This document shows, piece by piece, positions 42,816-57,646 of a DNA stretch of 64,000 nt; position 1 is the first letter of the stretch; each line of letters opens with the position of its first letter. Where the stretch lies: the NCBI GenBank assembly GCA_039586365.1, contig JBDHKN010000001.1:64001-128000 (forward strand), written 5' to 3'. Made by a program: the position numbers and the translations under genes. The stretch is from Gemmatimonadota bacterium (GTDB lineage Bacteria > Gemmatimonadota > Gemmatimonadetes > Gemmatimonadales > GWC2-71-9). A model generated the notes under the pieces. That model had not been told where the DNA came from. It saw only the letters and a list, made by a program, of their open reading frames with translations, and ran no database searches.

Positions 42816-44012
42816 ATGGAGCAGACCTACTTTCGTAAGGGCTTTGGCCTGAGGGGAGAGATTGCTGGCTCCCTCTCCCATGACTATCACAGCGCGCTGG
42901 TCGACAGCATCCGCAATAGTGGCTATGCATTGACCGTCGGTGGATTGACGATTCGACTGGCCAAAGAGTTCGGATTCTGCTACGGTGTCGACCGGGCGGT
43001 AGAGTACGCATACGAGACGAGAACCAAGTTCCCGTCTAAAAGCATCTTCTTGATCGGCGAGATCATACACAATCCGCACGTCAACAAACGTCTTGAGGCC
43101 ATGGGGATTACGATCCTGCAGCCACAGGCGAATGGGCAGTTTGACTACTCTCCAGTTGCGCGCGACGATGTCGTGATCATCCCGGCGTTTGGCGTGCCAC
43201 TCAGTGACTTCGAGTATCTACACAAGCTGGGTTGCCCTTTGGTCGATACGACCTGTGGCTCTGTCCTGAACGTGTGGAAGCGAGTGGAGCGATACGCGAA
43301 GGACGGTTTCACGGCCCTCGTGCACGGAAAGGAGTTTCACGAAGAGACAAAGGCCACGACTAGTCAGGTTGCGAAGTATTCGGATGGCAAGTACATCGTC
43401 GTGCGAGATATGAAGGAGACAGAAGTAGTCTGCAGCTTCATTGAGGGAAGTGGTGATGCTACTGAACTGGAGAGGCGCTTCCGTGGCAAGGTGTCAGACG
43501 GTTTCTGTTTCGATCGAGACCTAGTGAAGGTAGGGATCGCGAATCAGACAACAATGCTAGCGGCGGAATCGCTCGCGATCGCGGAGCGTGTGGGCCAGGC
43601 TCTTGGCAAGAAGTACGGTGCCGACATGCTTGATGAACACTTTCGGTCATTTGATACGATCTGCTCGGCAACGCAGGAACGCCAGGATGCAGTGCTCGAG
43701 TTGATAGAGGAGCCAATCGATGTGATGATCGTGATTGGTGGTTACAACTCGAGCAACACAAATCACCTCGCCAAGATCTGTTCAGCCAAGCGACGCACGT
43801 ACCATATCGCCGACGCGTCGTGTATCGATCCTGAGAGTGGGGCGATCCGGTACAAGCCCGTGCTCCAAGTCGACGAAGTACAGCAGGAGAACTGGATCGA
43901 TGAATCGGTGCGAATGGTGGGAATCACGGCTGGCGCGTCGACCCCGAACAACAAGATTGGGGAGGCCATCGAGCGAGTGTTACGCACGAAGGGCTTAGTA
44001 ATCCCGATCTAG
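42816..44012 (+). CDS. ispH: 4-hydroxy-3-methylbut-2-enyl diphosphate reductase
   Basis: FGFCYGVDRAV, IIHNP, DTTC, NQTT, DTICSATQERQ, GGYNSSNT and GITAGASTP. Confidence 0.96.
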   Translation: MEQTYFRKGFGLRGEIAGSLSHDYHSALVDSIRNSGYALTVGGLTIRLAKEFGFCYGVDRAVEYAYETRTKFPSKSIFLIGEIIHNPHVNKRLEAMGITILQPQANGQFDYSPVARDDVVIIPAFGVPLSDFEYLHKLGCPLVDTTCGSVLNVWKRVERYAKDGFTALVHGKEFHEETKATTSQVAKYSDGKYIVVRDMKETEVVCSFIEGSGDATELERRFRGKVSDGFCFDRDLVKVGIANQTTMLAAESLAIAERVGQALGKKYGADMLDEHFRSFDTICSATQERQDAVLELIEEPIDVMIVIGGYNSSNTNHLAKICSAKRRTYHIADASCIDPESGAIRYKPVLQVDEVQQENWIDESVRMVGITAGASTPNNKIGEAIERVLRTKGLVIPI

Positions 44013-47000
44013 CCCCAGTCCCTAGATCCAGGAGCTGAGCGACGAAGGCTTCTGAGGAACGAGTAAGGGGAGGGTGTTGTGGACGTGTCTGGAGTGGTTA
44101 GAGGTGCCAAGCGCGGATGTCGTAGTCGGAGAGGCCGCACCTCCTCCGCTATCACGTTCACCGTGCCATCGTCCTTCGCCAGTCTTCCTACAATCCATAT
44201 GAACGGTTCTTCTCGGATAGTGACACGGCACTGGTCGTAGAGATCCGGGTGGACGATAGCGTTTATCATACCAGCTTCGTCCTCAAGTAGAATGAATGTG
44301 AAACCTTTTGCCGTGCCGGGTCTTTGTCGTGCCACCACGAGACCAGCGACGTGCACTGGGATATTGTGTTCGCTATCTGCCAACTGATCACTGCGGACAA
44401 CTTCAGATGGTAACGCATCGGCTAGGAGGCTGAACGGATGACCGCTCGCAGCAAACCCAAGAACCTGGTACTCAGCCAAGAGTCGCTCTTCACTTGGTAC
44501 ATCACCAAATGGCAGATTCTCGTGAGGATGATCCAATGGCAGTTCTAACTGCCGCCTCACACGGTTCTTGTTAGCTCGATCAGCTTTTGGGGGTAGCCAC
44601 AATCCCACTTGCCATAGTAGGTCACGTCGAGTGAGTCCAAACGAATCGCAGCCCCCAACCCACACCAGGTTTTCGATGGCATCCCGCAACAACCGGGGTG
44701 GGGCGCGACGTACAAAGTCACCGAGGCTGAGGTAGGGGCCATTACGTTCACGTTCTACAACGGTCGCGTCGGCAACATCGAGCCCCCAGTCGCGTATGAA
44801 CGAAAAGCCGATGCGTATCGCATCTCCCTCGACTGTGCAATAGACACTGCTACAATTGATGTCGGGGAGCTTCACCTCTACATCATGGCGCGCCGCGTCT
44901 CGACCGAGGGCGTCGAGTGAGTAAAAACCCATTGGCTGATTGTTGAAGAGCGCGGTGTAGTACTCGATGGGGTAGTAGTGACGTAGCCAAGCGGACTGAT
45001 ACGCAAGCAGACCGAACGCAGCTGCATGAGACTTGGGAAAACCGAATTCTGAGAAGGCTATTACCTGCTCAAAGACTCGTTGCGCAATTGCTTCGCTCAC
45101 ACCTCTTGTGGCGGCACCATCACGGAACTCCTCCCAGAACCCTTCCATCAATTCACGAGAGCGTCGGCGGCTCATTGCGCGCCGTAGTGCTTCTCCCTGC
45201 CCGGCGCTAAACCCTGCCAGGGCTTGGCAAACTTGCAGCACTTGATCCTGATAGATAATCACTCCCAATGTCTCGGCCAGTGGCTCCTTGAGCAATGGAT
45301 GATCTAACGGGGGCTCATAAGAAATGTTGCGAGAGCAGGCTGCGCGCTGTGCCTCGCGCCGGCGCACGAAGGGGTTCACTGCTCCACCGACTATCGGACC
45401 AGGGCGTACAATAGCGACTTCTACGCAAAGATCCTCCAGGTTGCGCGGTCGAGTGCGTCGGATCATCTGTATCTGCGCGCGACTCTCTATCTGGAAGGTC
45501 CCTACTGTGTCGCCAGTGCAAATCTGATCGTATACAGCTTCGTCAGTGAAGTCGATCCGACTCAGGTCCGGTGGTGTACCCTCACGTTCAGCGATCAATT
45601 CAACGGACTCCTCAACCAGAGAGAGCATGCCCAGTGCCAGGAAATCGATCTTGATGAACCGTGCATCGTCACAGGAGTCCTTGTCCCATTGACACACGAC
45701 CCGGTCAGGCATGGCAGAGCGTTCCAAGGGGACCAACTCGAGCAAAGGACGACTGGAGATGATCATGCCGCCTACATGTTGTGAGATATGCCGTGGCAGG
45801 TCCGCGATTTCCGCTGCCAGACGACACAGATCCCGCCAAAGAGGAGCATCCACTCGGCCTGCAAAGGCAGGCAACTTCTGCAGCTCGTTGCGCAGTTCGG
45901 TTGCTGGGCTGTGTCCGACAAGTCGTGCAATCTGTTCGATTTCTCCGCGGGGTAGGTCGAGAACCTTCCCGAGTTCACGCACAGCAGATCGAATGCGGTA
46001 AGTGGGAAAAGTACAAACCAAGCCAACGTGTTCGGATCCGTATCGCTGGTAAACACGTCGGATCAATTCCTCCCGAATGTCGCGGGGGAAGTCCAAGTCG
46101 ATGTCGGGTACAGATGCGAGCGATTCGTTGAGAAATCGGCCGAGGAAGAGCCTGTTGCTGATTGGATCGATGTGCGATAGCCCAAGGAAATAGCAGACTA
46201 CGGATGAAACCGACGAGCCGCGTCCGCGGCCCGGTAGCAGATTGCCTCTAGCCCGTTGCGATCCACGTCGCACATCTGCTGCCACCTCGCGTGCCAGCTC
46301 CAGTAGATCGTGGTAGACGAGAAAGAAGCCACATAGTCCATGATGTTCGATGAGCTTTAGTTCCTGCTCCATTCTGCTCTCGGCCTCGGCGCGATGGGGC
46401 GACTCGGGAGAAAAGAGCTCTTCGAGTTTGGTTCGTGACAAGTCGGCTAGTGCCCGAGCGGCAGTCTGCTGGGTGGAACCGCGAAAGTCAGGGAAAGTGT
46501 ACCCAAGGTCCTTGGTTAGATCGAAAGAAGCACAGCGTTGTGCAATCACGAGGGTATTGGCGATAGCGTCAGGTCGGTCATGGAATGCTGCCGCTACAGC
46601 TGTAGGTGTCCGAAGATAAAACTGGCAGTTAGGACGGCGGATATCGTGTGAGGTGTCGAGTGTCGTACGATTACGGATTGCTATCAAGGCATCGTGTAAG
46701 CGGTATCGCTCGCGGCGGTGGTAGTGAACGTTACCTGTCGCGACCACGTGCAGTCCGGCAGTGTCAGCGATATTGGACAAGGTGCGGGTGAGCGTCTGGT
46801 CGCCTCGTACAAGATTGCGCTGCAGCTCGACAAAGAAACTGTCTCGTCCAAATACCGCGCGACAACGGTCCGCAAGCTGACAAGCAGCCTTGAGACCTTC
46901 TTGCTGAAGTACGCGAGGGATAATGCCGTTGCGGCAACCTGATAGTATGATTAGGCCCGCATGCCGTTGTTCCAGTGAAGTGAAACTGAGGCGCGGATCA

Positions 47001-47311
47001 CGGCGATCTGCTGTCTCCAAGTGTGCTTCGGTGATAAGGCGACAGAGGTTCGCGTATCCTTGCGGCGTTTCTGCTAAGAGAGTGATGTGTGAGCCGTCGC
47101 GTAGAGTGATTTCAGCGCCAGTGATCGGCTGGATATCCATCTGCTTGGCTGCCTGTGCGAAAATCATCGAGCCATACACACCGTTATGGTCTGTGAGTGC
47201 GAGGGCGGGATAGCCAAGCGCATGAGCTTCTAGGACGAGGTGCTCGGGAAGCGAGCTGCCATCTAAGAAGGAGAAGGCAGAATGGGAATGAAGTTCGATG
47301 TATTGGCTCAC
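44009..47311 (-). CDS. dnaE2: Error-prone DNA polymerase DnaE2 (ImuC)
   Basis: ELHSHSAFSFLDG PHP domain, GRGS, PDIDLDF, HVGGM, KIDFLALGML, FPKSHAA, NNQPMGFY, RQRPGTAKG and C-terminal SRDW tail; GTG 47311 overlaps the upstream stop. Confidence 0.96.
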   Translation of the reverse strand: MSQYIELHSHSAFSFLDGSSLPEHLVLEAHALGYPALALTDHNGVYGSMIFAQAAKQMDIQPITGAEITLRDGSHITLLAETPQGYANLCRLITEAHLETADRRDPRLSFTSLEQRHAGLIILSGCRNGIIPRVLQQEGLKAACQLADRCRAVFGRDSFFVELQRNLVRGDQTLTRTLSNIADTAGLHVVATGNVHYHRRERYRLHDALIAIRNRTTLDTSHDIRRPNCQFYLRTPTAVAAAFHDRPDAIANTLVIAQRCASFDLTKDLGYTFPDFRGSTQQTAARALADLSRTKLEELFSPESPHRAEAESRMEQELKLIEHHGLCGFFLVYHDLLELAREVAADVRRGSQRARGNLLPGRGRGSSVSSVVCYFLGLSHIDPISNRLFLGRFLNESLASVPDIDLDFPRDIREELIRRVYQRYGSEHVGLVCTFPTYRIRSAVRELGKVLDLPRGEIEQIARLVGHSPATELRNELQKLPAFAGRVDAPLWRDLCRLAAEIADLPRHISQHVGGMIISSRPLLELVPLERSAMPDRVVCQWDKDSCDDARFIKIDFLALGMLSLVEESVELIAEREGTPPDLSRIDFTDEAVYDQICTGDTVGTFQIESRAQIQMIRRTRPRNLEDLCVEVAIVRPGPIVGGAVNPFVRRREAQRAACSRNISYEPPLDHPLLKEPLAETLGVIIYQDQVLQVCQALAGFSAGQGEALRRAMSRRRSRELMEGFWEEFRDGAATRGVSEAIAQRVFEQVIAFSEFGFPKSHAAAFGLLAYQSAWLRHYYPIEYYTALFNNQPMGFYSLDALGRDAARHDVEVKLPDINCSSVYCTVEGDAIRIGFSFIRDWGLDVADATVVERERNGPYLSLGDFVRRAPPRLLRDAIENLVWVGGCDSFGLTRRDLLWQVGLWLPPKADRANKNRVRRQLELPLDHPHENLPFGDVPSEERLLAEYQVLGFAASGHPFSLLADALPSEVVRSDQLADSEHNIPVHVAGLVVARQRPGTAKGFTFILLEDEAGMINAIVHPDLYDQCRVTIREEPFIWIVGRLAKDDGTVNVIAEEVRPLRLRHPRLAPLTTPDTSTTPSPYSFLRSLRRSAPGSRDWG

Positions 47312-47649
47312 GGCTTTTGTATATACCAGTCGCCAGTCATCAAATCTTCGTATAGAACCACATGCATTCCTCCATCCAAAACCACTTCTGCATACCATCG
47401 TGAGATCGGTTGCCGCCACCACTCGTCGTCGACTCTCCAAATCTCCAATATGGACTCCACTGCTCTTCCTACTTCTTGTCTGTATCCTTTCTCTCGCTGT
47501 TCCACTGTTCCACTGTTCGGTTGCTGTATGGCGAACACTGCCGTCGGATGTCCCTGACTGTTCAGTTCGACCTTTGCTGGCTGCGGAAGGTTCAAAGGCC
47601 GCAGACGGTCAGCCGGTCCAGGTTTTGGAGGTTTAGGGGTCATAATCAA
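47308..47649 (-). CDS. Small ImuB-C-terminal-like (DUF6504-like) protein
   Basis: LRPLNLPQP..WRVDDEWW..RWYAEV..LYEDL..GDW pattern matches the Trp-rich tail of long ImuB proteins; coupled to imuB and dnaE2. Confidence 0.8.
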   Translation of the reverse strand: MIMTPKPPKPGPADRLRPLNLPQPAKVELNSQGHPTAVFAIQQPNSGTVEQREKGYRQEVGRAVESILEIWRVDDEWWRQPISRWYAEVVLDGGMHVVLYEDLMTGDWYIQKP

Positions 47650-49060
47650 TCAACGCATATCGTCGCTCGGGAAGGCGTGACTGCGGGTGTACTTTGACAA
47701 CTTGGTAGAGTGAGGAATGTCTGAACCTGTTCTTTATCTCACGAACCGCTGCACGAAGCGCCCGTCTGCGTCCCGCACGTGCAGAGCTAGCAGCATCGCG
47801 CGCAAAGAGCTGCAATTCGTCGGTTCCACGAACGAAGGCTGTGAATTCCACTGCAAGAGTTTCCACGGCAGTAGTTGGGGGTGCCTGCTCTAAACGCGTT
47901 TTGAGCGGTGCGGCTATGTGATTTCGATCGGCAGAAGGACACTTCAGATTGACATGTACCTTCCACGAAGTGGCGTGTTCTTGCCGCGCGTGCACGCCTA
48001 CCTGAAGTACGCGCCAGCCGGTACGCTTTGGGTGGCGCAGTGCACGTTCGATTAGCCGGTCCAGGGCATGCAGGAGCATTGCTCGATCCGTGACCGGTGT
48101 GGGAAAATCGATCTCTGCTACTATGGGTTCTAGTGTCTCGTGGCCTACGACTGGGTCAGCTATTTCACCACTCGCCAGCAACCAGAGGTGATGGCCCTCT
48201 CTCCCGAATTGAGAGATGAGGGCGACAGCAGGCAACCGGACCAAAGCTCCGAGTGTTGTGATGCCGAGTTGTCGTAACCGTCTACACGTATCCGGGTCGA
48301 TGGGTAGAACCTCGACCGGCTGTGACGCCAGGAAACCAGCCCGTTCTGTGTCAGGGACAATGGTTGCCTCTCCTTGCTTAGCTTTGGTTGCGGCCACCCC
48401 GGCGACGAACTTCCCCCGGGCCCAACCCAGGCGGATCCCCTCCCAACGCGACCACACAGGACGGTCAGTGGTGGAAAATGACGGCAAGGAGTGATAAGGG
48501 CACCTATTGCCAGCTACCGTCATGTGACCGCCCTTTACCGCCCTTGCTATGGCATTAACCTGCTCCTGAGGTGACCCGTTTAGCCCCTCGAGACCATCCA
48601 CCCCGATGAACACCCGTCCCAACTCCGCCGGCTCGATTACAGGGCTCACATCACCGAGTGCCAAGATCAGGTTGGAAAACTGCTCGTCGTAATAAACGGG
48701 ATCGGGTTCGCGGAGTTTGATTTGAGGGCAAAGCCCTACTGCTTGGCTCACGGTCATGCCGGGCCTAATGCCAGCGCGACGGGCTTGGGGTGAGGTCTCC
48801 CATATCCGGCGGGCGTCATCGTTGGAAAGAAGAGCTACCGCCTGGCCATACAGTTCCGGCTGGCGCTGTACCTCACAGCGGATAGCGAACAGGGGGATCC
48901 AGAGGCAGACCGCGTGTTCACTGGACAACCCTGCCGTGCCAACCTTGCCACTGTCCCTCCCCAGGTGGGGGGGGATAGCAGGCGGGAAGGGACGGTAGGT
49001 GATGGGTGGTCCCTTGCCGTCTCTTGCCGTCCTCTTACCCACCATTACCGTCTCGTTCAC
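47633..49060 (-). CDS. imuB: Inactive Y-family polymerase ImuB
   Basis: CLWIPLF..PEL, ARRAGIRPGMTVSQAVGLCP and LRQLGITTLG HhH; catalytic acidic residues absent; LQLF clamp motif. Confidence 0.88.
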   Translation of the reverse strand: MNETVMVGKRTARDGKGPPITYRPFPPAIPPHLGRDSGKVGTAGLSSEHAVCLWIPLFAIRCEVQRQPELYGQAVALLSNDDARRIWETSPQARRAGIRPGMTVSQAVGLCPQIKLREPDPVYYDEQFSNLILALGDVSPVIEPAELGRVFIGVDGLEGLNGSPQEQVNAIARAVKGGHMTVAGNRCPYHSLPSFSTTDRPVWSRWEGIRLGWARGKFVAGVAATKAKQGEATIVPDTERAGFLASQPVEVLPIDPDTCRRLRQLGITTLGALVRLPAVALISQFGREGHHLWLLASGEIADPVVGHETLEPIVAEIDFPTPVTDRAMLLHALDRLIERALRHPKRTGWRVLQVGVHARQEHATSWKVHVNLKCPSADRNHIAAPLKTRLEQAPPTTAVETLAVEFTAFVRGTDELQLFARDAASSARAGRRRALRAAVREIKNRFRHSSLYQVVKVHPQSRLPERRYALIDYDP

Positions 49061-50082
49061 AGCAGGCTCAATTGCATTTTCTGTTTTACCACTCGATGTT
49101 CTCTCACCTGCAACGGGTCGTCTGGATCAATCCCATGCTTCCGTGCAATTCGCTGAAACCGGCGCTGGACTGCAGTGACGTAGCTGGATGGTGCGTCCCA
49201 GTTACCTCGGTATGCCACACGGTATCGTGGGATGAGATTCGGGAAATGCTGTGCGATGATTGATAAGAAGTGGTCTCGCGCTGCCGGATAGAAGCGCAAC
49301 ACCGAGGGGTGTACGAAAGCAGTATCTGCTGCACGTGCCGCAAGCATGAGAGCATCGATCTGAAAAACGGAGTCCGTGACGCCTGGTAGGATTGGCGCGG
49401 CGTTGATCCCTGCTCTGATACCCGCCTTGTTCAGCTTCTGGAGGGTACGAAGCCTTGCGTGGGGCATGGATGCGCGGGGCTCGAACAGCTTGATAGTCCG
49501 TATGTCCGTACTGATTAGAGAGATATAGACCGTCACGCGGTGTCTGCGTCCCAATTCGCCTAGTAGGTCGGTGTCGCGGCAGATGAGGGGACTCTTAGTA
49601 ATGATTCCGATGGCCAGGCCACGGGCATCTAAAAACCTCTCGACGATTGCTCGCGTGATTTGAAACCGTCGCTCGGCTGGCTGATAGGGATCAGTCGCAG
49701 TTCCGATGATGATAGGGTGAGGATCGTCAAGAGTGTTCTTCAAGTGGATCCGGACGAGATCGCGCTCGAGTGCAGTCAGAACAGCTTGGCGTCGTTTGAC
49801 GAAGATGTGTCTTTCGAACATCTCCCAATTTCCTGAAGCTCGAAACTGAGCGACCGCTTCTGTGGAGGCCTTTCCAGCGTAATGTGCGCGTTCCACCGCA
49901 TACCGGTGTGTAACGCGGGCGTAGCAATAGGTACAGCCGAACTCGCAGCCTATGTAAGGATTGATCGACCAAAAGCCCATGCCAGTGCTTGCGGGGGAGT
50001 TAACGACCGACTTGACCTCGTGTTCGAGGAAGGTGACACTGCAGTGGCGTTGGTCGTATGCTGGGCGTCCCCTGTTACCCAC
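49057..50082 (-). CDS. Radical SAM protein of the SplB/Rv2578c-like DNA-repair family
   Basis: SINPYIGCEFGCTYCYAR, GTATDPYQPAE, ITKSPLI..D, FEP and APILPG; C-terminal QLSLL; GTG 50082 follows GGGGGA. Confidence 0.9.
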   Translation of the reverse strand: MGNRGRPAYDQRHCSVTFLEHEVKSVVNSPASTGMGFWSINPYIGCEFGCTYCYARVTHRYAVERAHYAGKASTEAVAQFRASGNWEMFERHIFVKRRQAVLTALERDLVRIHLKNTLDDPHPIIIGTATDPYQPAERRFQITRAIVERFLDARGLAIGIITKSPLICRDTDLLGELGRRHRVTVYISLISTDIRTIKLFEPRASMPHARLRTLQKLNKAGIRAGINAAPILPGVTDSVFQIDALMLAARAADTAFVHPSVLRFYPAARDHFLSIIAQHFPNLIPRYRVAYRGNWDAPSSYVTAVQRRFQRIARKHGIDPDDPLQVREHRVVKQKMQLSLL

Positions 50083-50263
50083 ATTTCCCCCATCCACACG
50101 CGGGGCAGACGAAACATCCGGAGGCCGGATACACAGTACTGCCACAGTCCGGACACAGATGTGCAGGGTTCCAGCCAGGAGGTTGGTCAACCTCTTTGGT
50201 GTTGGAGACAGGCGAAGATGGGCTAGGTGACTTCGTTTGTGTGTTCGGGTAAACTTCGGTCAT
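50075..50263 (-). CDS. Small zinc-ribbon protein resembling the C-terminal Cys motif of class II ribonucleotide reductases
   Basis: CPDCGSTVYPASGCFVCPACGWGKCG (six Cys); leaderless ATG; 8-nt overlap with the radical SAM gene. Confidence 0.75.
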   Translation of the reverse strand: MTEVYPNTQTKSPSPSSPVSNTKEVDQPPGWNPAHLCPDCGSTVYPASGCFVCPACGWGKCG

Positions 50264-50297
50264 ATACCGAATATATACCGAATATACCTTGGCGCAA
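50244..50297 (-). promoter_or_regulatory. Leaderless sigma-70-type promoter (TTGCGC-N16-TATATT-N6-ATG) overlapped by a four-half-site operator (putative LexA/SOS box)
   Basis: Plus strand reads TTCGG(50244)-N6-TTCGG(50255)-N7-CCGAA(50267)-N6-CCGAA(50278), symmetric about the start codon. Confidence 0.7.
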
Positions 50298-51625: not shown

Positions 51626-52321
51626 ATGCTGCGTGAGTTGATCAAGATCTTCCGCGCCGAGGAACCGCTCGGGAAGATGGGTACGAATTTCGCTCAGATG
51701 CTCAAGATCACTTTTGAGACCACCGTGAGAGCTGGCGATATCTATTTTGGTAAGCCAGCGACACCGGAGGAACGAACCTGGATCTACAAACAGGACGTGA
51801 AGGTCAACAAGCTGCAGCGGAAGATCCGCAAGCAGGTAATCGCTCATCTTTCCCTGGCGGGCAACGCCCTTGACCTGCCGTACTGCTTGCTCATCATGAG
51901 CCTGGTCAAGGACGTGGAGCGGCTGGGAGACTACGCCAAGAACCTGTCGGAGATTGTAGATGCCCACTCTGGCCCTCTGCCTGACGATGAGATCGTTGCA
52001 GAACTTCGGGAGATCCGTTCAGGTGTTGAGGCGGCGTTCCAGGTAGTGGCGGAAGTCTTCCAGCAGTCCGATACCGAGCGAGCGGTCGAACTGATACGCC
52101 AGGGTCAGGATCTTGCCCGAAGGTGTGATATGCTGGTTGTGAGAATTGCTCGCAGCGACCATCTTGCTGGTCCGACAACCGCGCTTGCCTTGGGGACCCG
52201 GTTCTACAAGCGAATCGGTGGTCATGTCCTCAATGTCCTCTCTAGTGTCGTGATGCCACTCCACAAGCTGGATTACTATGATGAGGACGCTGTCCCACCT
52301 GAGTACCGTACTCAGGCTTAG
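51626..52321 (+). CDS. PhoU-domain protein
   Basis: DVKVNKLQRKIRK, KDVERLGDYAKN and KRIGGHVLN PhoU repeats; follows the Na/Pi symporter. Confidence 0.88.
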   Translation: MLRELIKIFRAEEPLGKMGTNFAQMLKITFETTVRAGDIYFGKPATPEERTWIYKQDVKVNKLQRKIRKQVIAHLSLAGNALDLPYCLLIMSLVKDVERLGDYAKNLSEIVDAHSGPLPDDEIVAELREIRSGVEAAFQVVAEVFQQSDTERAVELIRQGQDLARRCDMLVVRIARSDHLAGPTTALALGTRFYKRIGGHVLNVLSSVVMPLHKLDYYDEDAVPPEYRTQA

Positions 52322-54675
52322 TTCGCTGTCCTCTCAGTACCGTCACCAAACAGGGCAGCCAAGACCTGAGGGGTCGGCCTACTCCTCCTAGCGGGCGGTA
52401 GCTCGTCGAGGCACTGGGTGAGCGTTTTGTGGCCCGACTGAGCCGCAAGTAGGCCAGCGAGTTCTCGCTCTCCGCCTACGGTAAGACCCGCATGTACCCG
52501 GTCAAGCAATCGATCCAGGATGTAGAGCCGTCGATAATCCCGCAGTCCACTTGCTATGTATGCCTCGCCCATGATGTTTCGGCCCAGACGGCGCGCAGCC
52601 GGATTGACTGGACCAACCTCGAAATCGGCCAGTCTGCGACGCACGAGGTTCAGGAATCCCGCCACCAGCTCGTTAGGCGGTGCAGCCGGAGATAGCTCGG
52701 CTGACAGCAGTCGTCGCAGAATTGTGTCGGCCAGTGCGTAGTCGGTCTCCAGTTGGAGCGGCTGGTTGCGGAGCACGATTAGCTCAGGAATGTCACTGCC
52801 GTCGACTGCCCAGCGGATTGCGAGCGCAGCGGCCAAAGGACCCTGCACAACCGCGAATGCTGGACGCGTCCCGCTCTCTGCTCGAACTGCCCCGCGTCCC
52901 AACCGCTCTCTGTCCTCCAACATCACGTTTATCAGGTGACCCTTTCCCACCAATGTCGTCGCTGGTACACCCACCCCAAGTTGACAGCGGGCCTTTTCAG
53001 CCAGGCGGGCCTCGATTTGCAGACGTCTGTCAATTGCGTGTGGCGGGGCGAACCAGCAGACGTCCGCCACTCCATGTTTTGAACCCAACCGCACCACACG
53101 GCCAATACGCTGCTCGAGAGTGAGAGGTGTCCACGGAAGGTCGTAGTGCACGACGCCATCCGCGTCCTGTAGGTCGAGGCCCTCGCTGGCGAAATCTGTG
53201 GCAATGAGGGTGGTCACTCGCGTAGCCGTGTGAGGCTCGGGCATTCGACGTGCCTTCGGCGCAAAGAGAGCTAGTGCCTCTTCTACTGGTATTCGGCCGG
53301 ATGCAATCCAGCCCTTGCCCGCTCCTACCACCGCGACGCGGTGCCAACTCAGGCTATGTGCTAGGTCTAGCGCCGTAGCCACAGCAGCCGTGAACACAAT
53401 CGTCTTGTGATCTCGCCTCCGCTTGATCAGCCGAGCGAGGACGGTAGCCTTGGGATCAGCACCACTCTTGCTCGGCAGCTCCTTCAACAGATTGCTCAGT
53501 CTACTCCGCTCTCGGTCCAGCGATTCCAGATCTACGTCCGTGAGTGAATGTCGCTCGGCTAGATCACAGAGTTGCAGCTGCAGTTCGTACTCGGAACCGA
53601 AGATCCGGCGCGCCCGGGCTCGTGATAGCTGGTTGCCAGATCGGGCTTCCTGCAAGGCCCGCTCAATGTAGACGAGATGTTTTCGTACGGTCTGGCGAAA
53701 GGCAGTCGCGGAGGAGGCGAGCCGGAATAGCAAGTGTAGTCTCAATAAAGCAGCTGCTTGCTTTTCGCTTGTTGGCGGGAACTCTAGTGCATCTGTCATC
53801 CGGAGCAAGCTGGTTAGTTTTCCCGGCGTAACGGGCGGTGGTCGCATGATCGCTCCATCCCTCACTGCGGGAGGCAGGTGAGAGGCGGTGTCCAGCGTGC
53901 TGCGTGAGCGAGCAACAATAGCCGGCGCCGTCGCTCTCCCGAGCTCTCGATAAACGCGCGCTCCAGTTGCAGCCTCCAATGAACGGACTCCAAACAAGGC
54001 GAACGCGTGATCAGCTGCAAAGAGCCGCAGCAAGTTCACCAAATCTGCCGCTCGGTTGACCACGGGCGTAGCGGTGAGGAGTAGGACATGCGCCAACTTG
54101 ACAGCCCGGGCTAGCGTGTCATAGCGGCGCGTCAATGGGTTCCGGAATCGGTGCGCCTCATCAACTATGAGGAGCTCTGATGGTGGTATGTAGCATCCGT
54201 GGCTCAGTGCCTCATGTGATAACAAAGACACAGTGCTGCTGCCGACTCCTTCGCATGCGCGACGCCATTGTGGTAGGATCGCGGCAGGTACGAGTGCCGT
54301 TGCTGTTCTGTAGGTCGTAGCGATGGCGAGGGCCACATAGGTCTTCCCCAACCCGACAGCGTCAGCGACGAGCGCACCGCGTAGAGCTAGCAGGCTGGCG
54401 CGGGCTCTCCGGGCCGCCTGTCCCTGGTGGAGCATCAGCCAACGAGGGGGCTGCCACTCGGTATCGATGGGACCGAGTGCCGCGGCCCGGAGCGCTGCCT
54501 CAAGTTTATGTGGCGCGACTTGGTACCCAAGATCGATGTTCCAAAGCAATGGCTCGCAGACGGCGTGCAGCTGCTCAGCCGTGATGCGTGGCCACTGAAC
54601 GAAGGAAGCGGCGCGCCTTGGCTGATAGCCCGAGTGCGTCGGCGACGGCCTCGTCCAGGTCAGTGTTACTGACAT
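52318..54675 (-). CDS. SNF2-family helicase/ATPase; start uncertain
   Basis: LVADAVGLGKT, IVDEAHRFRN, LLTATPVVN and ATDFASEGLDLQ..VHYDLPWTPLTLEQRIGRVVR. Confidence 0.9.
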   Translation of the reverse strand: MSVTLTWTRPSPTHSGYQPRRAASFVQWPRITAEQLHAVCEPLLWNIDLGYQVAPHKLEAALRAAALGPIDTEWQPPRWLMLHQGQAARRARASLLALRGALVADAVGLGKTYVALAIATTYRTATALVPAAILPQWRRACEGVGSSTVSLLSHEALSHGCYIPPSELLIVDEAHRFRNPLTRRYDTLARAVKLAHVLLLTATPVVNRAADLVNLLRLFAADHAFALFGVRSLEAATGARVYRELGRATAPAIVARSRSTLDTASHLPPAVRDGAIMRPPPVTPGKLTSLLRMTDALEFPPTSEKQAAALLRLHLLFRLASSATAFRQTVRKHLVYIERALQEARSGNQLSRARARRIFGSEYELQLQLCDLAERHSLTDVDLESLDRERSRLSNLLKELPSKSGADPKATVLARLIKRRRDHKTIVFTAAVATALDLAHSLSWHRVAVVGAGKGWIASGRIPVEEALALFAPKARRMPEPHTATRVTTLIATDFASEGLDLQDADGVVHYDLPWTPLTLEQRIGRVVRLGSKHGVADVCWFAPPHAIDRRLQIEARLAEKARCQLGVGVPATTLVGKGHLINVMLEDRERLGRGAVRAESGTRPAFAVVQGPLAAALAIRWAVDGSDIPELIVLRNQPLQLETDYALADTILRRLLSAELSPAAPPNELVAGFLNLVRRRLADFEVGPVNPAARRLGRNIMGEAYIASGLRDYRRLYILDRLLDRVHAGLTVGGERELAGLLAAQSGHKTLTQCLDELPPARRSRPTPQVLAALFGDGTERTAN

Positions 54676-57646
54676 GGTCGCCTTTGTGAGCTTGCGCGCT
54701 CAGTTCACGCAGGGCTGAGCGCTGGGGTCCGGGCTTCGGCACAGGTATCTGTCCGGCGACCCGGGCGTTGATGCGGCGGTAACCACCCCGGGCCTCGTCT
54801 GCAATAGCATACGTCAGCGCTCGAGCCCAGCAGGAGTTCAGCACTCCCGTGATCGTGAGTGCAGTGTCCCTATTAGGCGCGGACGCCAAGTAACAAGTGT
54901 TCAGGGGGATGGCTCTGTTTGCGTCGGTTTCGTCCAATGCCACTGCGCGTGGATGTGTGGCTATGTCTGCCCAGACTACCCGGTTTTCCGACAGTGCGGG
55001 TTTCACTCGGAACAAACTCCAGAACGGACCGCCCCGATAGTCGGCGCGTTTCGTGAGCTTCATCGAGTACCGTCTCAAGTAGCTCGCTGCTTTGCGCGGA
55101 ATCGTGTCGAGTGGGGCGCCGGATTCGGCATGAGTCCACACTATGACGTGTTCTGGATGAGCCTGAAACGGTGTAACGTCCCGACCTCTGAGTGCAGGGC
55201 GCAACATCGCTGACTCGATTGCGACGCTCCGATCAGCAAACTCCACGTGGCCGAAGTCTCCATTCGCTCCGGCCGTGTGGCCAATGAAGATCCTGTCTGC
55301 TCCGGTCTTTACTCCCAATGCGGGAGTCGCGACCTCAGCTAGTGGCTGACCTGCGGACCGAAGCTCCTCAAGAGCGTCTCGGACGTTATTGGGGAGGAGG
55401 ATCCAGGGTCCTGAGCCATTTAGTGCTGCCTGTGACAACGAGCAGTTTGGTGTGAAGCCGAGTTGGACAGTGTGCGTCGGCTTCGGTGGTTCCTTCCTAA
55501 CCACGAGGCCCAAGGGGTATGTCGTGGCCCCGAAACGCTCCGCGTCTCGTTCGGAAACACGGTGTACGAAAGTGATAGACGTTTCCCGTACCAGCCCCCT
55601 CCGCGCAGCCTCACCGTAGGTAGCGGATGTCACCTTGCTGGGAAGTAGGAGTCCGACTGTACCTCCCGGAGCGACCAATTCCAGGGCGCGTTGAAGAAAC
55701 GCTACCGAGAGGTCGGGGAGGTGTGCGTAGCCACGTGCTCCACTGCTGCGCCACCAACTGAAACGCTCCTGCAGGGTGCGTCGCAGGGGTGGTGATAGGC
55801 GTTCCGCTCGCACCCATGGAGGGTTACCGACTACTGCACAGAAGCCTCCGTCTGCGATGACATCGGGTGCCTGTATCTCGAATGAGAAGAAGGGGATCCG
55901 TCCTTCAGATACCTGCTTCTGTGCGCGCACCAGGTCCCTTTTCGTCGACCTGAGCACCCGGAGACGCTCTGCCTGTGCACGCGTGAGGCCGGAAGGGTCA
56001 CCGAACAGATCGCGACCGGATAGGATTGCTGTGAGGTCTCCGATCGCGTACTGGATGCTGGTGATTGCTTGCCGAAGGACACATCGTGCAACCTTGATCT
56101 CAGTCTGTCGTAGTCGACGGAGATCCTGTTGCTGGGCTCCGCCTCCAGAATCGAATAGGGTGCGCCGGGCTGCACTCACTGAACGAGTAGCGTCGTTCCA
56201 CGCGTTGCCTATGCCGTGAAGTAAACGTCGAGCTGCTCCGACTGGATCGAGGAGTGTGTCGCCCTGTCGGACGACACCATCGAGATTGGGTAGAGGCGCT
56301 ACCTGCGGGATCTCTGTCGTGGGATCGTCCGCTACAACTGCGAGCCACAGCCTGAGTTCAGCGAGATGTACTGCCACTGGGTTTATGTCGATTCCCATGA
56401 GGTTGTCACGCATTATGTCTCTCCTGATCCGGGACCTATCCTGGTGTCGCGGTCCGAGGAGAGCGCTGCGTATCCGGGTGAGAGTCTCAAGAACTCCAAG
56501 TAGGAAGGCACCGGAACCGACCGCAGGATCGAGAATGCGGAGTCGCTGCAGTGCAATGCCCGCAGTCCGCTTTTCGTCCTCTGTCAGGTGTGCGCCGCTC
56601 GCTACGGCATGGGCCAGCCGGTGCGGCATTTGACGTGTCAAGGCAGATTCGATGGTGGCCTCGACCAACTGTTTGACGACCGCTTCCGGAGTGTAGAAGG
56701 TGCCGCTCTCATGGCGTTCCGTTCCCTCCATGAGCCTCTCGAACACCCTCCCCAACATGTCTGGAGCTATGGCATCGACCTCATCATCCTCCCGCACACA
56801 GAATCTGAATCTCTCGAACAGACCATCAAATGCGTCACGCCACAGCTCGTTGGGATAGTGGATCCGTCCCACCCGTCGCTCGATCGGATGAGGCTCAAAG
56901 AGACCGCCGTTCAAATAGGGAATGGTCCCGAGCTTGATTTGCCGATTTCTTTGCCGCAGTGGGCGGTTCAGCGTGCCGAAGAACAATGGATTGAGCTTCG
57001 TGCGGTGGAAGTCGCTACGGGTTTGGAGCGCTCTGTCGAAAAGAGACCGCAGATAGCAGGAATCTCGGTTGAGCCAGCCTTTCTGTTGTACGAAGTAGAG
57101 AAACATGACTCGCGTGAGGCTCAACAGGGCCAGCATCCTGCGTTCTCTACCGGTTGCCGCACCACCGGGGGTTGTAGCCATGCGCTCATAGATCTGCCTG
57201 AATGCACAGAAGAACCGCTCAGTTACCTTTTCGCTGCTCAGCACCTCAGCAACCCACAGGGCATGCGAGAGCGCATTGGACGATTTCTTCGGTCTGAGTC
57301 TTTCCAGTTGTTCAAGGGTGAACCGAGAGGGATTGTTGAGCTGGACTGTGAGTGCGCGCGTGGTGCCTGGTCGACCAATGCGCGGAGCGGCAAGCGTCAG
57401 GGTGCCTGCTCTTGCAAGAACCACTGCCAACCCACGCTGTGAGTTCCGTGCAAGCTTGGCTGCGAGCTGACGTACTGCTTGTAACGGGTCATCGCCTGCC
57501 GCGGCCACCACCTTGAAACCCTGCCAGTGGGCCACTACAAGTGCTTCACCGTATACTCCGATGTGGTCGGGCTTGTATCCCAGTGCCACAAACAGCCGGC
57601 TGACTTCTGCGGTTGTAGCAATGCCCTTGAGTACCTGCTTGACCAT
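54575..57646 (-). CDS. Large N6-adenine DNA methyltransferase (Eco57I/type IIG/DrmMI-like) with C-terminal TaqI-C-like recognition domain
   Basis: YLNGGLF, LGRVFE..SGTFYTP, ILDPAVGSGAFL (motif I), VGNPPW (motif IV), GVKTGAD and LNTCY..LNS. Confidence 0.9.
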   Translation of the reverse strand: MVKQVLKGIATTAEVSRLFVALGYKPDHIGVYGEALVVAHWQGFKVVAAAGDDPLQAVRQLAAKLARNSQRGLAVVLARAGTLTLAAPRIGRPGTTRALTVQLNNPSRFTLEQLERLRPKKSSNALSHALWVAEVLSSEKVTERFFCAFRQIYERMATTPGGAATGRERRMLALLSLTRVMFLYFVQQKGWLNRDSCYLRSLFDRALQTRSDFHRTKLNPLFFGTLNRPLRQRNRQIKLGTIPYLNGGLFEPHPIERRVGRIHYPNELWRDAFDGLFERFRFCVREDDEVDAIAPDMLGRVFERLMEGTERHESGTFYTPEAVVKQLVEATIESALTRQMPHRLAHAVASGAHLTEDEKRTAGIALQRLRILDPAVGSGAFLLGVLETLTRIRSALLGPRHQDRSRIRRDIMRDNLMGIDINPVAVHLAELRLWLAVVADDPTTEIPQVAPLPNLDGVVRQGDTLLDPVGAARRLLHGIGNAWNDATRSVSAARRTLFDSGGGAQQQDLRRLRQTEIKVARCVLRQAITSIQYAIGDLTAILSGRDLFGDPSGLTRAQAERLRVLRSTKRDLVRAQKQVSEGRIPFFSFEIQAPDVIADGGFCAVVGNPPWVRAERLSPPLRRTLQERFSWWRSSGARGYAHLPDLSVAFLQRALELVAPGGTVGLLLPSKVTSATYGEAARRGLVRETSITFVHRVSERDAERFGATTYPLGLVVRKEPPKPTHTVQLGFTPNCSLSQAALNGSGPWILLPNNVRDALEELRSAGQPLAEVATPALGVKTGADRIFIGHTAGANGDFGHVEFADRSVAIESAMLRPALRGRDVTPFQAHPEHVIVWTHAESGAPLDTIPRKAASYLRRYSMKLTKRADYRGGPFWSLFRVKPALSENRVVWADIATHPRAVALDETDANRAIPLNTCYLASAPNRDTALTITGVLNSCWARALTYAIADEARGGYRRINARVAGQIPVPKPGPQRSALRELSAQAHKGDHVSNTDLDEAVADALGLSAKARRFLRSVATHHG

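Follow-up and report, generated by a model that had tools for sequence, protein, structure and literature searches.

Which genes belong to a putative SOS mutasome, and which only travel with it? The question was raised by five consecutive minus-strand genes in the window, the 64,000-nucleotide stretch of a Gemmatimonadota genome that we analyzed. They code for a six-cysteine miniprotein, a radical SAM protein, a Y-family polymerase homologue, a small protein and DnaE2 (Table 1). An earlier, sequence-only reading took them for its best candidate for an undescribed system, in which the miniprotein (as a Zn-ribbon) and the radical SAM protein fill the slot of ImuA.

Gene cluster and candidate operator

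All five open reading frames were present on the minus strand (5/5), and their orthologues are conserved in identical order, which confirmed the proposed genes as real. They overlap as proposed, except that the 49060/49057 overlap needs the GTG start at 49060, and conservation of the Y-family gene starts at TTG 48928. The 377-aa radical SAM reading that begins at TTG 50190 was discarded: it would overlay the greater part of the miniprotein gene, and the homology sets in at about residue 7-15 of the 341-aa form. Recent horizontal arrival was rejected: loci L005-L009 share the ispH and Na/Pi-transporter/phoU genes on the flanks, and the GC content is 56%, compared to 58.5% in the flanks.

Table 1 Features of the five-gene cluster, with positions in the window.
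Feature	Position	Strand	Remarks
Miniprotein (six-Cys, 62 aa)	50075..50263	-	PRK08665 E 5e-8; variable N-terminal arm + C37, C40, C50, C53, C56, C61
Radical SAM protein, PA0069/Rv2578c type	49057..50082	-	PF04055; CxxxCxxC at 49947-49924; C-terminal QLSLL
iPolY (N-terminal part of split ImuB)	47633..49060	-	IMS, IMS_C; start GTG 49060 or TTG 48928
iPolY clamp-like LQLF	47815-47804	-	
iPolY RecA-NT-like segment	about 47776-47675	-	
Standalone ImuB-C, 111-113 aa	47308..47649 (alternative start 47643)	-	aligned by hhalign with the C-terminal domains of canonical ImuB
DnaE2, 1100 aa	44009..47311	-	NF004225; clamp-like RQLELPL at 44554-44534; ends SRDWG
Candidate LexA box 1, TTCGG-N6-TTCGG	50267..50282	-	11-bp direct repeat, immediately 5' of ATG 50263
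Candidate LexA box 2, same repeat reversed	50244..50259	+	overlaps first miniprotein codons

The direct repeat TTCG-N7-TTCG precedes the cluster, as well as 31/31 lexA and 29/30 recA genes, which bears out the predicted SOS-type operator. It was found in 0/61 coding controls, with ~0.2 occurrences expected from shuffles. Box 1 is one of the three best PWM sites in the genome, and a reverse-orientation box is present at 36/54 miniprotein loci. Judging by where it occurs, the repeat is likely the LexA box of the order; no description of it was found in the literature searched. The GTTC-N7-GTTC LexA box of Alphaproteobacteria (PMC3323433), likewise located before lexA and recA, is also built as a direct repeat of 11-bp period. 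However, the core here is TTCG(G), and the base preceding TTC is free: of 90 sites, just 19-34% have G there. The class II ribonucleotide reductase gene nrdJ was rejected as a member of the LexA regulon: the genome analyzed here holds a weak site, but the repeat preceded nrdJ in only 2/20 relatives, at unconserved positions. A scan for sigma-70 promoters and terminators gave nothing above shuffles. As no promoter-like site passed at the operon start, a leaderless start at ATG 50263 is an unsupported idea.

A putative mutasome with split ImuB

In the Y-family protein, the catalytic acidic residues are replaced: the SIDE motif of DinB aligns to ELGR, and the first acidic motif reads CLWIP. By its residues, it is a catalytically dead polymerase (iPolY). 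It had been labeled ImuB; a Y-family protein with LQLF it is, but it ends 55 residues past the clamp motif and lacks the ImuB-C domain, so we call it inactive PolY instead. ImuB-C is a separate ORF. The identification of this small gene was borne out by hhalign, which gave a probability of 91.6% and E 8e-7 against the C-terminal domains of canonical ImuB. The protein had no Pfam or NCBIfam match. Its model is mainly beta (pLDDT 84.5), and a fold search with it returned unrelated rows only (best Z 5.8). Both ImuB-C and DnaE2 follow iPolY in 74/76 loci with room for them.

The iPolY tail holds a RecA-NT-like segment, the best and in-register site but a weak one (hhalign E 0.012-0.015, probability about 3%, with 3.5% at E 0.012; control profile E 0.53). 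An HMM of Gemmatimonadales RecA N-termini did not score significantly against this tail (about residues 415-475), in which an A-L-x-x-A-x-x-E-I face is conserved. The helix-ending Gly of the motif is replaced by K/R in 72/79 members of this iPolY subfamily and present in 11/13 distant homologues. One cluster of distant iPolY homologues is labeled Longimicrobiales.

DnaE2 scored 916 bits against NF004225, just under the cut-off of 939. Its catalytic motifs are intact, with DIDxD conserved in 65/65 sequences and KxDFL in 64/65. In the tree built here, which compared it with ImuA-linked DnaE2, it fell into a separate clade (support 1.0). The nearest plasmid copy, from Thermomicrobium roseum (40%), has a RecA-like gene in front of it and was no help in placing the clade.

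The proposed lack of imuA was supported by the genome searches. In the own genome (86% complete), NF033429 and a lineage-specific ImuA profile matched recA only. ImuA was found in 27/61 genomes overall, in 0/18 of those with this DnaE2 type (the own genome and 17 relatives, 63-99% complete) and at 0/80 iPolY loci; given this incompleteness, absence means "not found". The two mutasome types never co-occurred among the 61 genomes searched. Relatives within the order carry the canonical imuA-imuB-dnaE2 type, often behind the same miniprotein-radical SAM unit.

The miniprotein and radical SAM unit

The six cysteines of the miniprotein are invariant in 13 aligned sequences, and the array was present in 70/70 miniproteins, 63 of them with an identical pattern. 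Over 29 aa, the miniprotein is 52% identical to the tail of NrdJ from its own genome. On this sequence evidence it is a homologue of the C-terminal Zn/redox motif of NrdJ (PMC5704485). The cysteine spacing is +3,+10,+3,+3,+5, compared to +3,+10,+3,+3,+6 in NrdJ, and both modelled NrdJ redox cysteines are matched, by C50 and C61. In contrast to NrdJ, the miniprotein stands alone (45-65 aa) and lacks the remainder of the 150-220 aa domain. Its gene lies away from nrdJ, and the protein ends in CGW[GA]RCG.

The radical SAM protein best matched the PA0069/Rv2578c families of NCBIfam (E 2e-52 and 3e-50), with 178 and 171 bits, below both curated cut-offs (360 and 430). Its COG1533 (SplB-like) label was taken from the literature, with no scan behind it here. 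CxxxCxxC is conserved in 99% of 71 orthologues. No fourth conserved Cys was found among them, no Cys column exceeding 49% outside this motif. Spore photoproduct lyase filled Foldseek ranks 1-6 (E 5.5e-6, TM 0.47, 15% identity). Searching the PDB with the protein sequence, and with a profile of it, turned up no meaningful match, the solved lyase included. The clamp-like motifs proposed for three proteins were all present: ELQLF of iPolY and RQLE[LA]L of DnaE2 are strongly conserved, but the radical SAM tail has only a looser Q-x-L-x-L, with the strict pattern in 23/71 orthologues.

In the neighborhood survey, the miniprotein gene lay directly 5' of the radical SAM gene in 40/41 genomes (52/54 loci). 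In 70/72 loci, at most 7 kb separated iPolY from a radical SAM gene upstream of it. The proposed linkage to imuB-dnaE2 is conserved within Gemmatimonadota; the exact five-gene order was present in 24/72. In 46/72 loci, pair and polymerase genes were 1-5 kb apart. An opposite-strand DUF72 gene filled this gap in 43/46, and iPolY had its own candidate box in 46/46 gapped loci, compared to 0/24 contiguous ones. The pair lay directly before imuA in six genomes (G044, G046, G052, G056, G058, G060), was unlinked from the dnaE2 cassette in three (G006, G017, G025) and was present in four 88-98% complete genomes in which no DnaE2 passed the search (G009, G023, G024, G033). The miniprotein and the radical SAM protein are thus a module of their own, independent of the polymerase cassette, and the claim that they occupy the ImuA slot is not supported.

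Proposed mechanism and alternatives

We consider it quite probable that two modules are joined at this locus: a split-ImuB mutasome predicted to rely on RecA as its ImuA substitute and an independent unit of the miniprotein and a SplB-like radical SAM protein, which likely acts beside the mutasome and not within it. Both are likely part of one LexA-repressed operon. DNA damage would activate RecA, and cleaved LexA would leave the TTCG-N7-TTCG boxes, giving a single transcript. Following published models and the Deinococcus genetics, iPolY would use LQLF to attach to the beta clamp and bind RecA via its C-terminal RecA-NT-like helix, while ImuB-C would bridge to DnaE2, resulting in mutagenic lesion bypass. 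The radical SAM protein may be recruited by the clamp and apply radical chemistry to a DNA lesion. The miniprotein would most likely be its Zn-bound thiol/disulfide redox helper, the weakest step of the model. The five-gene unit likely originated by loss of the intervening DNA, usually the DUF72 gene, and of iPolY's own operator.

In the model of the sequence-only reading, the Zn-ribbon and the radical SAM protein replace ImuA in a clamp-organized complex of five proteins, coupling lesion processing to translesion synthesis. The 24 loci with the exact order, the proximity to iPolY in 70/72 and the clamp-like motifs on three proteins fit such a complex. The occurrence of the pair near the other mutasome type as well makes some functional coupling plausible. 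Yet the pair shares an operon with imuA in six genomes, is separately boxed in 46 loci, stands unlinked in three genomes and occurs in four without detected DnaE2. In addition, RecA is a published (predicted) substitute for ImuA. Together, these points make the five-protein complex very improbable.

The remaining alternatives concern the two-gene unit. A miniprotein independent of the radical SAM protein and only co-regulated with it is a minority possibility; induced by damage, it could, for instance, serve NrdJ or the mutasome as a redox shuttle or modulator. It would agree with the homology to the NrdJ tail, and with three genomes (G087, 98% complete; G138, 99%; G155) in which the miniprotein is intact and boxed but the radical SAM gene was not found. 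One such copy directly precedes iPolY (L162). These cases, and the radical SAM genes without a miniprotein in 10/51 genomes, indicate that a helper role is not obligatory. On the other hand, the miniprotein gene is directly 5' of the radical SAM gene in 52/54 loci, nrdJ has no conserved box (2/20), and the NrdJ domain, when expressed on its own, failed to bring back activity in trans ("data not shown", PMC5704485). Complex prediction of the radical SAM protein (14-327) with the miniprotein (28-62) scored 0.00 in two runs; the partner fold is uncertain, and the result carries no weight. A true spore-photoproduct-type lyase, reversing the thymine photoproduct unaided next to a structural Zn-ribbon, is rather improbable. 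The Foldseek ranking and the name SplB used in SOS papers speak for it, against which stand the 15% identity, the TM of 0.47 and the missing sequence match to the solved lyase. In spore photoproduct lyase, an extra Cys acts as hydrogen donor (C140 mutants appear in the matched PDB titles), but the 71 orthologues have no conserved Cys beyond CxxxCxxC. A bolder form of the two-module model, which we hold to be unlikely, has C50 and C61 of the former NrdJ terminal-reduction motif supplying a hydrogen atom or electrons in trans. The miniprotein, now free-standing and induced by damage, would donate what the lyase-like protein cannot supply, so that the two genes would form a two-component, clamp-recruited radical DNA-repair enzyme ahead of the mutasome. 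If true, this would be the first biochemical handle on a widespread SOS radical SAM family.

Relation to known systems

The miniprotein bears on the role of SOS-induced SplB-like proteins, which may require a small redox partner to be reconstituted. A 2016 paper on a Verrucomicrobia LexA motif reportedly described a splB-imuA-imuB-dnaE2 operon. SplB-like proteins are SOS-regulated in several phyla (PMC8565304, PMC3323433). With these (COG1533; PA0069/Rv2578c) and spore photoproduct lyase, the radical SAM protein shares the SOS-type operator and a fold nearest the lyase. It differs by the lack of a conserved fourth Cys, the 15% identity to the lyase and the dedicated six-Cys miniprotein upstream, found in two families of this order. 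With the direct-repeat box, the SOS regulon would become predictable in a phylum that is abundant and little studied.

The polymerase core is not an undescribed system. Inactive Y-polymerase, standalone ImuB-C and DnaE2, with RecA as the predicted stand-in for ImuA, are described in PMC6511836 and PMC12926913, and an ImuA-less core also in PMC8072749. Since the core was published as a prediction, its presence here mainly extends the range to Gemmatimonadota. According to the first two sources, the Kyrpidia tusciae type/DnaE2X has these three genes in identical order, with a dead Y-polymerase plus an ImuB-C that stands alone; no imuA was found in that genome either, and the Kyrpidia row shows a RecA-NT-like tail without the Gly. 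Among the passages and supplement rows consulted, no Gemmatimonadota member or radical SAM neighbor is given. Here, in contrast, the three genes are joined to the miniprotein-radical SAM unit behind a direct-repeat box. The SOS-induced imuY-imuB-C-dnaE2 cassette of Deinococcus, where ImuY, DnaE2 and RecA are needed for UV mutagenesis (PMC8072749), shares, by gene content, the ImuA-less Y-homologue, ImuB-C and DnaE2. It has its own lexA and no Zn-ribbon or radical SAM genes. With imuA-imuB-dnaE2, the cluster has DnaE2, a dead Y-polymerase, the ImuB-C domain, clamp motifs and SOS control in common. However, it has no imuA, its ImuB is split into two genes with ImuB-C unfused, and its DnaE2 belongs to a separate clade and ends in S[RK]xWG, compared to the canonical SxDFH/R. 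The cluster is, for the most part, a new wiring of known parts.

Gene content, clamp-like motifs and candidate operator

All five minus-strand ORFs described in the sequence-only reading were recovered from the window sequence. Family scans matched the 62-aa ORF best to the C-terminus of the B12-dependent ribonucleotide reductase (E 5e-8), and the radical SAM ORF best to the PA0069/Rv2578c models, with scores under their cut-offs. The remaining ORFs were a Y-family protein (iPolY), an ORF without any family match and DnaE2. The overlaps were as first reported, except that the one between radical SAM and iPolY is doubtful: conservation of iPolY begins at TTG 48928, 44 codons downstream of the GTG at 49060. 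Downstream, dnaE2 and the convergent ispH (LytB) share four bases (44009-44012), with both stops inside the palindrome CTAG. Upstream, a SNF2-type helicase gene and then an Eco57I/N6-methyltransferase-like gene (52318-57646) were found, as upstream of the cassette in three fetched loci (L005, L006, L008).

Clamp-like motifs had been proposed for three of the proteins. Those of iPolY (ELQLF) and DnaE2 (RQLE[LP/AL]) are well conserved; the radical SAM tail is looser (Q-x-L-x-L), with the strict pattern in 23 of 71 orthologues. Such motifs are frequent in repair proteins and C-family polymerases, according to the accessible text of PMC3919608. They suggest that each protein bearing one is recruited to the clamp, and are no proof of a joint complex.

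Candidate LexA boxes at the start of the operon.
Feature	Position	Orientation
TTCGG-N6-TTCGG box 1	50282-50267	minus
TTCGG-N6-TTCGG box 2	50244-50259	opposite orientation, overlaps the miniprotein's first codons

The direct repeat TTCG-N7-TTCG was present within 250 bp upstream of lexA in 31/31 loci, usually in two copies, and of recA in 29/30, compared with 0/61 control coding stretches and 0.15-0.23 expected from shuffles. It preceded 53 of 54 loci of the six-Cys Zn-ribbon miniprotein (0.42 in shuffles). Upstream of nrdJ, the class II ribonucleotide reductase gene, it occurred in 2/20 regions, at positions that are not conserved. Two of the seven best matrix sites in the genome of origin lie at lexA; recA and the cassette are also represented. 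Such a distribution is what comparative work usually takes as the mark of a LexA box, and the repeat is a candidate operator. The operon is probably under LexA control, and its five genes are likely co-transcribed. The repeat is similar to the alphaproteobacterial GTTC-N7-GTTC box (PMC3323433, accessible part), but is offset by one base in its conserved core. No published LexA-binding or direct-repeat SOS box of a gemmatimonad was found in a search that most subscription papers lay outside.

Elsewhere in this genome, a 63-aa basic helical ORF without Pfam match (contig C112:2577-2768, L214:2577-2768, minus strand) lies behind the top-scoring candidate LexA box. Of the ORF's four closest homologues from other genomes, three have this box upstream and one has a degenerate version; a contig C18 paralogue has none. 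The ORF possibly encodes a lineage-specific SOS protein. In family f2 of the Gemmatimonadales, 10 of the 12 genomes searched have a second, more divergent lexA.

The three-gene core and the search for imuA

The Y-family protein is predicted to be catalytically inactive, because ELGR replaces the SIDE motif of DinB in the alignment and the first acidic motif is gone. It ends soon after its clamp-like motif, without an ImuB-C domain, and the following ORF is an ImuB-C domain alone (hhalign probability 91.6 and E 8e-7, with the C-terminal parts of ten canonical ImuBs as reference). The DnaE2 catalytic motifs are kept in 65/65 and 64/65 sequences. DnaE2 of the operon falls into a clade separate from ImuA-linked DnaE2 (FastTree, n=33, support 1.0). 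Among the best 80 of 219 iPolY loci, 76 have at least 1.5 kb downstream, and in 74 of these iPolY is followed by ImuB-C and DnaE2. The titles of the 80 name 79 Gemmatimonadota-type genomes and one 'uncultured bacterium'; beyond these 80, other phyla may be represented. The core would perform mutagenic bypass. Family f1 has a third DnaE2-like clade, at ~30% identity and lacking the SxDFH end (L037, L038, L041-L043); in L038 its gene is preceded by a Y-family gene, and a box is present.

In line with the reported lack of imuA, an ImuA profile built from relatives matched only recA in the 86%-complete genome of origin. The profile matched in 27/61 genomes, in 0/18 genomes with the operon's DnaE2 type (63-99% complete) and in none of the best 80 of 219 iPolY loci. 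This DnaE2 type and imuA were not found together in any of the 61 genomes.

The iPolY tail was the best of 11 windows compared with RecA-NT, aligning over 34 ungapped columns, with a weak match (E 0.012 vs 0.53 for a control profile; probability 3.5%). The helix-ending Gly of RecA-NT is present in 11/13 distant iPolY homologues; its position is K or R in 72/79 sequences of the operon's subfamily. The motif is thus only suggestive, and iPolY may bind RecA.

The miniprotein and radical SAM pair

The pair had been proposed to occupy the ImuA slot of a clamp-organised complex. Its linkage patterns, which read most simply as two formerly separate SOS units, contradict this: in some genomes the pair is separately boxed, in some it precedes imuA and in some it stands apart from the dnaE2 cassette. 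Across 61 genomes, 40 of 41 standalone Zn-ribbon matches (E <=3e-10; weaker matches, mostly NrdJ-sized frames, excluded) lie directly 5' of the radical SAM gene, as do 52/54 in the fetched, partly overlapping loci. The pair lies within 300 bp upstream of imuA in six genomes and within 1.4 kb in two further; L024 and L030 have the order Zn-SAM-imuA-imuB-dnaE2. In G006, G017 and G025 the pair and the dnaE2 cassette are far apart, and four genomes (G009, G023, G024, G033) carry the pair with no DnaE2 at a threshold of E 1e-100.

Of the best 80 of 219 iPolY loci, 72 had at least 2.5 kb upstream (8 excluded). These showed the exact five-gene order in 24, radical SAM 1-5 kb off in 46 and no radical SAM in two. 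A box precedes iPolY in 46/46 gapped and 0/24 contiguous loci of this set. The simplest reading is that two neighbouring SOS units were fused through loss of the DNA between them. Radical SAM lies within 7 kb of iPolY in 70/72 of these loci, which bears out the expected linkage to polymerase genes in relatives and counts for some functional link. The gaps contain one or two opposite-strand DUF72 genes in 43/46 (e.g. L182:5950-6885) and a small HTH-like gene in 20, again from the best 80 of 219.

The miniprotein's six Cys are invariant in 13/13 aligned copies and kept in 70/70 copies at iPolY loci (best 80 of 219). It shares 52% identity over 29 residues with the NrdJ tail of its own genome. 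In the accessible text of PMC5704485, the NrdJ array binds Zn and delivers electrons to the active site. Its modelled redox pair is Cys933/Cys945, which corresponds by spacing to miniprotein C50/C61. Standalone copies are present in families f1 and f3; none were found in f2 or elsewhere in 121 phylum-wide genomes, bar one doubtful match (G146). The structure closest to the radical SAM model (pLDDT 80) is spore photoproduct lyase (E 5.5e-6, TM 0.47, 15% identity). In that lyase, an extra cysteine acts as hydrogen donor. Besides CxxxCxxC, no Cys is conserved in 71 radical SAM orthologues.

Because of the NrdJ-tail homology and a lyase-like partner without an extra conserved Cys, the miniprotein could provide the thiol, or the reducing equivalents, that the enzyme lacks. 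This idea is weakened by radical SAM without miniprotein in 10/51 genomes, by intact, boxed miniproteins in three genomes where no radical SAM was found (G087, G138, G155), and by the failure in trans of a separately expressed NrdJ domain (PMC5704485, accessible text). A two-component radical repair enzyme, with the miniprotein as its reductase-derived redox partner, is possible but unlikely. SOS regulons are known to include SplB-like proteins (PMC8565304 and PMC3323433, accessible parts); the paper titles found indicate no function for PA0069 or Rv2578c. Any role of the two proteins is inferred.

Intact six-Cys miniproteins with a box, from genomes in which no radical SAM turned up, are seen at L162:1-420, L226 and L237; the one in L162 lies directly before iPolY. 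A second standalone NrdJ-type six-Cys ORF (36 aa, no box) lies at C38:6803-6910 (L221:2304-2411) of the genome of origin, near a ferredoxin-thioredoxin reductase catalytic-chain gene, on a contig perhaps foreign to the genome.

Comparison with published ImuA-less cassettes

The interpretation given in the sequence-only reading is supported in part. The ImuA-less core had been put forward as undescribed; the same architecture is already found in the accessible parts of PMC6511836 and PMC12926913, the latter naming it DnaE2X-iPolY-ImuBC-RecA. Standalone ImuB-C was defined in PMC3765255, whose available text notes that its neighbours include DnaE2 and also SplB-like radical SAM genes. For the Deinococcus imuY-imuB-C-dnaE2 cassette, reviewed in PMC8072749 (accessible part), ImuY, DnaE2 and RecA are required for UV mutagenesis. 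The core of Kyrpidia tusciae, as presented in the accessible text of PMC6511836, shares with the window core the order iPolY, ImuB-C, DnaE2 and the lack of imuA; there, ImuA was proposed to be replaced by RecA via the RecA-NT motif.
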